Part shown: piece after piece, positions 21,401 to 22,011 of the stretch
Position numbering within the stretch: position 1 is the stretch's first letter
How the letters are laid out: each line of letters starts with the position of its first letter
Source: Dipteris shenzhenensis
Lineage: Eukaryota
NCBI GenBank assembly: GCA_047967505.1
Contig: CM106538.1
Reading direction: 5' to 3' (one strand)
Length of the DNA: 64,000 bases
The notes under the pieces: generated by a model
What the model was told of the DNA's origin: nothing
What the model saw: only the letters and a program-made list of their open reading frames with translations
Databases searched by the model: none
Translations under genes and position numbers: made by a program

Positions 21401-22011
21401 GATGTATTAATTAATGATTACTACCATAACCACCCTGAAGATATTGACTTTGGTCACATCCTCGGACACTTCAAATCCAAATTTGGCATAAAACGAGAGC
21501 GAGCTCGATTTGTAGTGAGAATACCTCCTTTCTTCCCAATTCAAATGTAGATTGTACATATGTCCAGACCATATTCACCCATTAAATATATTACTACATA
21601 TTTTCATGCAGTTTACGCCAGATATGGCATATGTCATGGGCGGCCCTGAGGATGACCGCTTCAAACAATTTGAGGAATTGTGTGGACACGCTTTCAACAA
21701 ACTTCGTGAAAGTGCTCATCTCTTGCTTAATCTTGCTCACTTGGTAAGTCTATATTTTGTACAACTAATTGTTAAATATGGAAGTACCTTGGACGTCCCT
21801 TGAAGCCCTTTGTTGGAAATATCTGTAGATGGTCTCCAGTGGAATACCAGAAATTGCAACACCTCAAAATGTGTACTATCTTCGTGATATCCTTGTACTG
21901 AACTTATCAGAAGAAGATGCAAAAGAGACATTTAAACAGTGGATAATGGAGAGTTTACAAACAACAGCGACACAACTAAACTATGCCATACATACTTGGG
22001 CGCATGGTTAA
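3270..22011 (+). CDS. Phosphoinositide 3-kinase catalytic subunit, class I-like; 3' part only, 7 exons, 5' exons not found in the window
   Basis: Exons 3270-3453, 3592-3711, 20802-20877, 21218-21349, 21441-21514, 21612-21743 and 21829-22011 join through GT-AG introns with consistent phases into 299 aa plus TAA, with all PI3K catalytic motifs. Confidence 0.93.
3592..3711 (+). CDS. PI3K exon B (hinge region)
   Basis: ttttcgc[42 protein letters not shown] |GTaagg, phase 0/0. Confidence 0.93.
4902..4978. repeat. 39-bp tandem duplication
   Basis: ctcaagcttggttgtgcaagcaactccacaaggctcc occurs twice. Confidence 0.9.
5136..7569 (-). mobile_element. Degenerate non-coding LTR-retroelement remnant; outer boundaries uncertain
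   Basis: Diverged ~200-bp direct repeats at 5136-5331 and 7354-7569; the left copy extends to an LTR-like end tgttaaca (5633) followed by taccccccttcc, a minus-strand PPT. Confidence 0.55.
7918..13285 (-). mobile_element. Ty1/Copia LTR retrotransposon, both LTRs present, coding region disrupted
   Basis: 171-bp TG..CA LTRs at 7918-8088 and 13115-13285; 5-bp TSD CTCCA; PBS tggtatcagagc (13101-13112); PPT at 8089-8104; gag-PR(WILDSGAS)-IN-RT(YVDD)-RNaseH in Copia order. Confidence 0.97.
8142..11702 (-). pseudogene. Disrupted Copia gag-pol
   Basis: ORF pieces 11040-11702, 10536-10949, 10125-10508, 8487-10082 and 8142-8474; deletion between PR and the IN core near 10510. Confidence 0.93.
15308..16217. 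repeat. ~450-bp tandem duplication in the LINE endonuclease region
   Basis: 15308-15773 versus 15774-16217; both encode [19 protein letters not shown]. Confidence 0.92.
20361..20443. repeat. ~43-bp tandem duplication
   Basis: ctttgatactcatggatt...tgctagagtaattaat occurs twice. Confidence 0.85.
20802..20877 (+). CDS. PI3K exon C (76 bp, absent from the ORF track)
   Basis: tttaat[27 protein letters not shown](G) |GTgatt; phase 0/1 bridges exons B and D exactly. Confidence 0.85.
21218..21349 (+). CDS. PI3K exon D (catalytic loop)
   Basis: tgatcAG| (G)[43 protein letters not shown](H) |GTatcc, phase 1/1. Confidence 0.95.
21441..21514 (+). CDS. PI3K exon E (DFG and activation loop)
   Basis: cctgaAG| (H)[24 protein letters not shown] |GTgaga, phase 1/0. 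Confidence 0.95.
21612..21743 (+). CDS. PI3K exon F
   Basis: catgc[46 protein letters not shown] |GTaagt. Confidence 0.95.
21829..22011 (+). CDS. PI3K terminal coding exon G
   Basis: tctgt[62 protein letters not shown]. Confidence 0.95.
   Translation: MVSSGIPEIATPQNVYYLRDILVLNLSEEDAKETFKQWIMESLQTTATQLNYAIHTWAHG

Follow-up and report, generated by a model that had tools for sequence, protein, structure and literature searches.

A fern class I/II-type phosphoinositide 3-kinase gene, predicted to encode a PIP3-making enzyme, carries the Arg/Lys mark of a green-lineage clade

Plants are usually said to lack a PIP3-making, animal-like phosphoinositide 3-kinase (PI3K), and class III Vps34 is named as their sole PI3K in the relevant passages of three sources (bioRxiv 10.1101/765594; PMC2841259; PMC2724695). 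A short exon in the fern Dipteris shenzhenensis raises the question of whether that view holds for all land plants. The exon lies at 21441..21514 of a 64,000-nucleotide stretch of contig CM106538.1 (assembly GCA_047967505.1), which was analysed as a whole and is hereafter called the window. The original prediction, made from the letters of the window, was that this segment encodes a basic activation loop nearly identical to that of p110beta, that PI(4,5)P2 is the substrate, and that the proline of the RER-x-PF motif is replaced by arginine. Our analysis favours, with reasonable though not high confidence, the view that exon 21441..21514 encodes the activation loop of a functional class I/II-type PI3K whose transcript is spliced and for which PIP3 synthesis can be predicted. 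That the gene is real and that Arg or Lys occupies the position of p110alpha P953 throughout a clade is, in our judgement, close to certain.

Seven exons on the plus strand, spanning 3270-22011, join to encode 299 aa of a class I/II-type PI3K kinase domain whose sole stop is terminal. All six introns are of the GT..AG type, with lengths of 138, 17,090, 340, 91, 97 and 85 nt. When each exon was scanned alone, the Pfam profile PF00454 matched five of the seven, in profile order, and the catalytic motifs of the kinase domain (ATP-binding Lys, DRH, DFG) are all present. The features of the locus are as follows:

3270..3453, plus strand: exon 1 in the window, kinase N-lobe; AG/GT sites; PF00454 E 7.9e-5; 83% to Adiantum capillus-veneris
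3592..3711, plus strand: exon 2, hinge region; AG/GT sites; PF00454 E 4.6e-4
3712..20801, plus strand: intron 2, 17,090 nt (GTAAGG..TAG), with retroelements inside
7918..13285, minus strand: Ty1/copia element in intron 2 (RVT_2, gag, primer-binding site)
14200..19700 (limits approximate), plus strand: degenerate LINE in intron 2, with RVT_1 at 16926-17168 (E 1.5e-6) and broken frames
20802..20877, plus strand: exon 3; tblastn 78% to Adiantum P0001; no Pfam match when scanned alone
21218..21349, plus strand: exon 4, catalytic loop DRHNDN; PF00454 E 8.1e-15
21441..21514, plus strand: exon 5, DFG and class I-type basic activation loop; AG before 21441, GT after 21514
21506..21508, plus strand: Arg codon CGA at the p110alpha P953 position by alignment; Arg/Lys mark of the clade
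21612..21743, plus strand: exon 6; PF00454 E 0.0035; the introns on both sides are skipped in the X1 contig
21829..22011, plus strand: exon 7, final kinase-domain helices and stop (end codon 22009-22011); no PX or C2 after it
22012..22110 at least, plus strand: 3' untranslated region, from the spliced X1 contig

In exon 1, we take MDSKK to be the P-loop and a 10-residue stretch to be the carrier of the ATP-binding Lys. Splicing at the 3' end of the gene is documented by a 467-nt contig from public run X1, which extends over 21464-22110 and skips introns 5 and 6. The run was taken as RNA from these GT..AG joints, and the spliced contig came from one of three public runs. The contig differs from the coding sequence of the window at two places, one silent and one that changes Ile to Leu; over 21464-21513 there are no differences, and the Arg codon is unchanged. 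A sequencing error at that codon is unlikely because the contig reads the same letters. A second X1 contig (499 nt, 4 differences) covers 22526-23000, and three frames located there or just downstream have no Pfam match. A short duplication (about 3170-3270) sits directly ahead of the acceptor of the first exon.

Positions 21443-21514 of the plus strand translate to 24 loop residues. Compared with 177,635 distinct PDB sequences, they are most similar to p110beta (20 of 24 identical, E 1.2e-7), followed in order by p110delta, alpha and gamma; p110beta is also the best PDB match of the Adiantum C-lobe. The likeness announced at the outset was thus borne out, and the p110beta loop given for that comparison proved to be correct. 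The four residues that differ are H, A, R and V, in place of the N, V, P and I of p110beta. The third is the anticipated loss of the RER-x-PF proline, encoded by CGA, and the segment first singled out turned out to be exactly one exon. The loop aligns with residues 932-955 of the p110alpha chain, and the Arg falls at residue 953, which is Pro in p110alpha (P953; a residue numbering given in PMC13589923).

The two basic clusters of p110alpha (941-944 and 948-949) are present in the fern loop as FKSK and KR, as in p110beta, and the equivalents of K942, K944, K948 and R949 are all basic. The first basic box reads the 5-phosphate, according to loop-swap studies. K942 and R949 are called critical to substrate recognition in a passage of PMC13589923; the pair K1283/R1284 of PI3K-C2alpha binds the 4-phosphate and is absent from Vps34, as stated in part of PMC8930771; and H936 is described in PMC11720314 as required for activity. 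Because the equivalents of K942 and R949 are present, the best guess is that the fern enzyme turns PI(4,5)P2 into PIP3, which we deem somewhat probable on the basis of the loop residues. In the mechanism that we propose, the kinase would hold ATP and Mg through its DRH and DFG motifs, the loop would grip the 4- and 5-phosphates of PI(4,5)P2 with its KR and KSK residues, and the product would be PI(3,4,5)P3. Where the loop ends, beside the second box with its 4-phosphate-binding residues, the Arg would contribute a single positive charge and may tune, rather than abolish, lipid or membrane binding.

The predicted fold was examined in the Selaginella protein, whose AlphaFold model has a mean pLDDT of 86.7, and of 91 in the block that holds the Arg; this confidence says little about the Arg itself because the input alignment consisted mostly of Pro-bearing sequences. 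A model from a 5-row alignment led by a Marchantia fragment reached a pLDDT of 54.6 and was discarded. When the helical and kinase parts of the Selaginella model were used as a Foldseek query, class II alpha came first (TM 0.78-0.79) and class I was level with it (TM 0.73-0.80), so that classes I and II cannot be told apart by the modelled fold. Vps34 was absent among the best 60 sequence matches and the best 50 fold matches. The usual plant enzyme shares the Pfam kinase family PF00454 with the fern protein and differs from it in lacking the basic residues of the loop, a difference taken from a passage of PMC8930771.

The most serious competitor of PIP3 synthesis is an active, class II-like kinase that would use PI4P or PI to form PI(3,4)P2 or PI3P and would have kept the class I-like loop as a remnant of its ancestry. 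Class II alpha structures do occupy the top six positions among the fold matches, the sequence TPDMAYV after the loop resembles the TSDMAYV of class II-like homologues, and the PI4P-binding KR pair is shared with PI3K-C2alpha. Furthermore, the lineage may predate the split between classes I and II, as considered in part of PMC4617754. However, the first box reads as in p110beta, whereas all three class II-like homologues examined have AQMF or YQMF, without a basic residue, at that place. Nor does a PX or C2 domain follow the fern kinase domain, as the stop codon at 22009-22011 leads into transcribed UTR. A class II-like mode of action seems to us unlikely, if worth keeping in mind. By these characters, the fern enzyme can be placed among the class I/II PI3Ks as a variant of the green lineage with a class I-like loop. 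The domains of its relatives set it apart from class IA, the absence of PX and C2 from class II, and it is not Vps34 either.

The architecture of the relatives has its own interest, and it describes them and not the fern's own 5' end. The p85-binding domain (PF02192) was found in none of the nine proteins scanned, eight of which are clade members; mammalian p110beta differs from them in this respect, and in having Pro at the site. Among six full-length clade members scanned, all have helical and C2 domains, three have an N-terminal PH domain (Pycnococcus included), and one, which is not Pycnococcus, has a Ras-binding domain (PF00794). Clade members therefore look like single-chain, PH-targeted enzymes, to judge from their domains. 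In the algal relatives, the N-terminal PH domain, rather than a p85 subunit, probably brings the enzyme to the membrane.

The 5' part of the fern gene, ahead of the kinase domain, falls outside the window. One alternative is that the gene is shortened or decaying, with kinase exons kept, the regulatory N-terminus lost, and little or no activity left. The named land-plant models all measure just 125-531 aa, those of Marchantia bear the label 'fragment', and no full-length land-plant protein appears among the 120 listed of 4056 matches over 930 aa. In the window, a tblastn search with nine homologues detected no upstream exon in 1-3269. On the other hand, the fern protein retains 82.5% identity to Adiantum capillus-veneris over 291 aa and 61.1% to Selaginella moellendorffii over 298 aa, with every catalytic motif kept, the X1 contig is spliced, and Selaginella conserves part of the helical domain. 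In addition, the models of relatives break at intron positions, which points to annotation failure. The model of A. nelumboides splits at the junction of intron 2 into the neighbours L7F22_015484 and L7F22_015485, and the match of Marchantia MpVg00670 stops at the same residue where exon 2 of the window ends; we infer that a long intron at this position breaks the annotation of the kinase gene in relatives. Decay is, on balance, improbable, and an intact gene remains the preferred reading.

How did such a gene come to be in a fern? The best matches of the protein are A. capillus-veneris, A. nelumboides, Selaginella moellendorffii and Marchantia MpVg00680; together with the plant-type retroelements and the RING-H2 gene, they mark the window as land-plant DNA, most probably that of a fern. 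Two trees were built with the focal column removed. In a FastTree phylogeny of 298 rows and 288 columns, with two Marchantia isoforms left out, a clade of 20 sequences that includes the fern protein has a support of 0.999. In an IQ-TREE phylogeny of 54 chosen rows (support given as SH-aLRT/UFBoot), the land plants form a group at 99.6/100, their grouping with Pycnococcus and one further sister has 89.8/94, and the whole Arg/Lys clade has 99.3/100, with weak deeper nodes. A split at 95.9/99 sets the fern protein apart from the three class II-like rows in this tree, which was built without a Vps34 outgroup and has little support at its deeper nodes. A special kinship with p110beta and animal class IA, which the loop might suggest, was rejected: in an AU test with 30 of these rows, the grouping of land plants with animal-side class IA gave p 0.003. 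The grouping of land plants with Mesostigma, a streptophyte alga that lies outside the Arg/Lys clade in the tree, was not rejected in the same test (p 0.095).

These relationships bear on the possibility that land plants acquired the gene horizontally, from a protist or an animal, or that the window is contamination. Transfer was left open for Selaginella by Philippon et al. (2015, PMC4617754), in the part of that paper that deals with its origin, and Mesostigma does not join the clade. Nevertheless, liverwort, lycophyte and ferns constitute one clade with a green alga as sister, exon junctions are shared with the Marchantia isoforms, and the animal-side grouping is rejected. A plant copia element, a LINE and a RING-H2 gene, all present in the window, point the same way. 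We give transfer or contamination very little credence. The clade, which is made of ferns, Selaginella, Marchantia, Pycnococcus and mostly metagenomic relatives, would most simply have been inherited vertically.

The replacement of Pro by Arg was examined across homologues. The 299 sequences that align over the site, among 333 fetched, are the top matches of capped searches and do not represent the family evenly; they have Pro in 249 cases, Ala in 17, Lys in 16, Arg in 10 and other residues in 7. Within the clade of 20, there are ten Lys, nine Arg, one Leu and no Pro, while outside it (n=278) Pro is found 249 times, Ala 17, Lys 6 and Arg never. Over the 24-residue exon, Selaginella is identical to the window at all 24 residues and Marchantia polymorpha at 22, both with Arg; A. 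capillus-veneris (23), A. nelumboides (23) and Pycnococcus provasolii (21) have Lys, and Mesostigma (19) has Pro. The question of whether orthologues share the Arg, raised along with the original prediction, is thereby answered in the affirmative for Selaginella and Marchantia, with Lys in its place in Adiantum and Pycnococcus.

Arg or Lys instead of Pro is an old mark of one green-lineage clade, and not damage. Of the two options initially put forward for the change, a lineage-specific modification stands and a damaging mutation does not. The position was also described as conserved, which is true to the extent that Pro predominates; it is, however, less fixed than was thought, as Ala, Lys and Leu occur. 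That a private mutation or a sequencing error explains the Arg, as the prevalence of Pro and the single base that separates the two codon types might suggest, can be dismissed almost completely in view of the identical X1 codon, the Arg or Lys of the orthologues and the lack of Pro in all 20 clade members.

The site tolerates change, given that 6 of 278 sequences outside the clade have Lys, 17 of 278 have Ala, and a fern-like protein of the clade, P0125, has Leu. Pro has been lost several times. P0125 (162 aa; 23 of 24 residues identical over the exon) is the sequence placed nearest to the fern protein in the trees, with 87% identity; its Leu may be a real variant or an assembly error. In a separate group of protist PI3Ks (P0230, P0194, P0202 and others), the site is occupied by Ala or Leu, and Lys is present there in some PI3Ks of oomycete-like or holozoan-like type.

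Two known plant systems are close to the fern gene. The first is the Selaginella class I PI3K, an orthologue by tree whose loop, Arg included, is the same; in the portion of Philippon et al. concerned with plants, it is presented as the single class I/II PI3K of the Archaeplastida, with contamination excluded and the choice between losses and transfer left open, and neither a loop analysis nor an assay appears there. The second is Marchantia, where MpVg00670 and MpVg00680 are two halves of this kinase domain, with Arg in the loop and the same exon junctions around it. They differ from the fern gene in being two V-linked, male-expressed 'fragments' without a class assignment. Ferns of this type are not known to have a V chromosome. 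In the entries of Data S1A of PMC8699743, both Marchantia genes are V-specific, are described as 'phosphatidylinositol 3-kinase catalytic subunit' and as 'charophytes; fragment', and are expressed in the male gametophyte only. Both halves match chromosome 3 of Riccia sorocarpa, about 11.5 kb apart and unannotated, according to entries of Table S2 of PMC11923412. Two male-expressed PH-domain genes, MpVg00615 and MpVg00620, are numbered just before the PI3K halves in the same Data S1A entries. Because algal clade members begin with a PH domain, these genes are candidates for the N-terminus; they could represent the missing N-terminus or a reader of PIP3.

The Marchantia V chromosome carries loci needed for sperm motility, as stated in a passage of PMC8699743. 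V linkage, male expression and a host range made of plants with swimming sperm suggest that the kinase works in developing or swimming sperm of land plants, a view to which we assign an even chance. No named protein from a moss, a hornwort, Ceratopteris, a cycad or Ginkgo was found among the matches listed, where split models are easily missed. One moss, Physcomitrella, has motile sperm. It is listed with class III only in Table 1 of PMC2841259, which counts against a role in sperm. A broader scenario is an attractive speculation on which we would not wager: green plants may have kept, from flagellate ancestors, a receptor-type, PH-domain, p85-independent PI3K marked by Arg/Lys. In liverworts, lycophytes and ferns, this enzyme would supply swimming sperm with PIP3 and so serve polarity, the building of flagella or chemotaxis towards the egg. 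It would have been lost in pollen-tube plants, and overlooked through intron-split models and because PIP3 has been sought in vegetative tissue of flowering plants.

Parts of this picture have been published separately, namely the Selaginella gene and the male-expressed 'fragments' of the Marchantia V chromosome. The fern member, the shared clade with its Arg/Lys mark, and the annotation break at one intron (17 kb here) are new: in the literature searched, mostly non-subscription, we found no report of a fern class I-type PI3K or of the Arg/Lys site, and 'MpVg00680' gave no full-text match. The land-plant host is the main point, one that the original prediction did not make. With the gene shared by a liverwort, a lycophyte and ferns, and with a green alga as sister, Selaginella is no longer an isolated case but part of a lineage, which makes inheritance a better explanation than transfer. 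A class I-type PI3K conserved across seed-free land plants is the main value of the locus, more than the Arg itself, which can serve to mark the clade and offers a natural experiment on the role of a nearly conserved proline. Whether any plant makes PIP3 becomes a question that can be tested directly in Marchantia, at a single, male-expressed locus of the male chromosome.

Other elements of the window deserve mention. The copia element of intron 2 has 171-bp LTRs with 5 mismatches and a 5-bp target duplication, and an inverted copy of its LTR end (94.6%) is found at 47231-47911. An open copia polyprotein of 1373 aa, encoded at 48233-52354 on the minus strand, resembles the intronic element at 71% across 1.6 kb. 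Tandem duplications are found at 15303-16217, within the LINE (about 466 bp, 88%), and at 556-918 (182 bp, 99.5%). A self-complementary stretch of 350 bp (60221-60568, 91%) is a putative MITE-like hairpin. Lastly, an intact single-ORF RING-H2 protein of 235 aa (zf-RING_2 E 1.1e-13), whose N-terminal part includes a hydrophobic stretch, is encoded at 30360-31067 on the minus strand; it resembles the ATL E3 ligases of plants.
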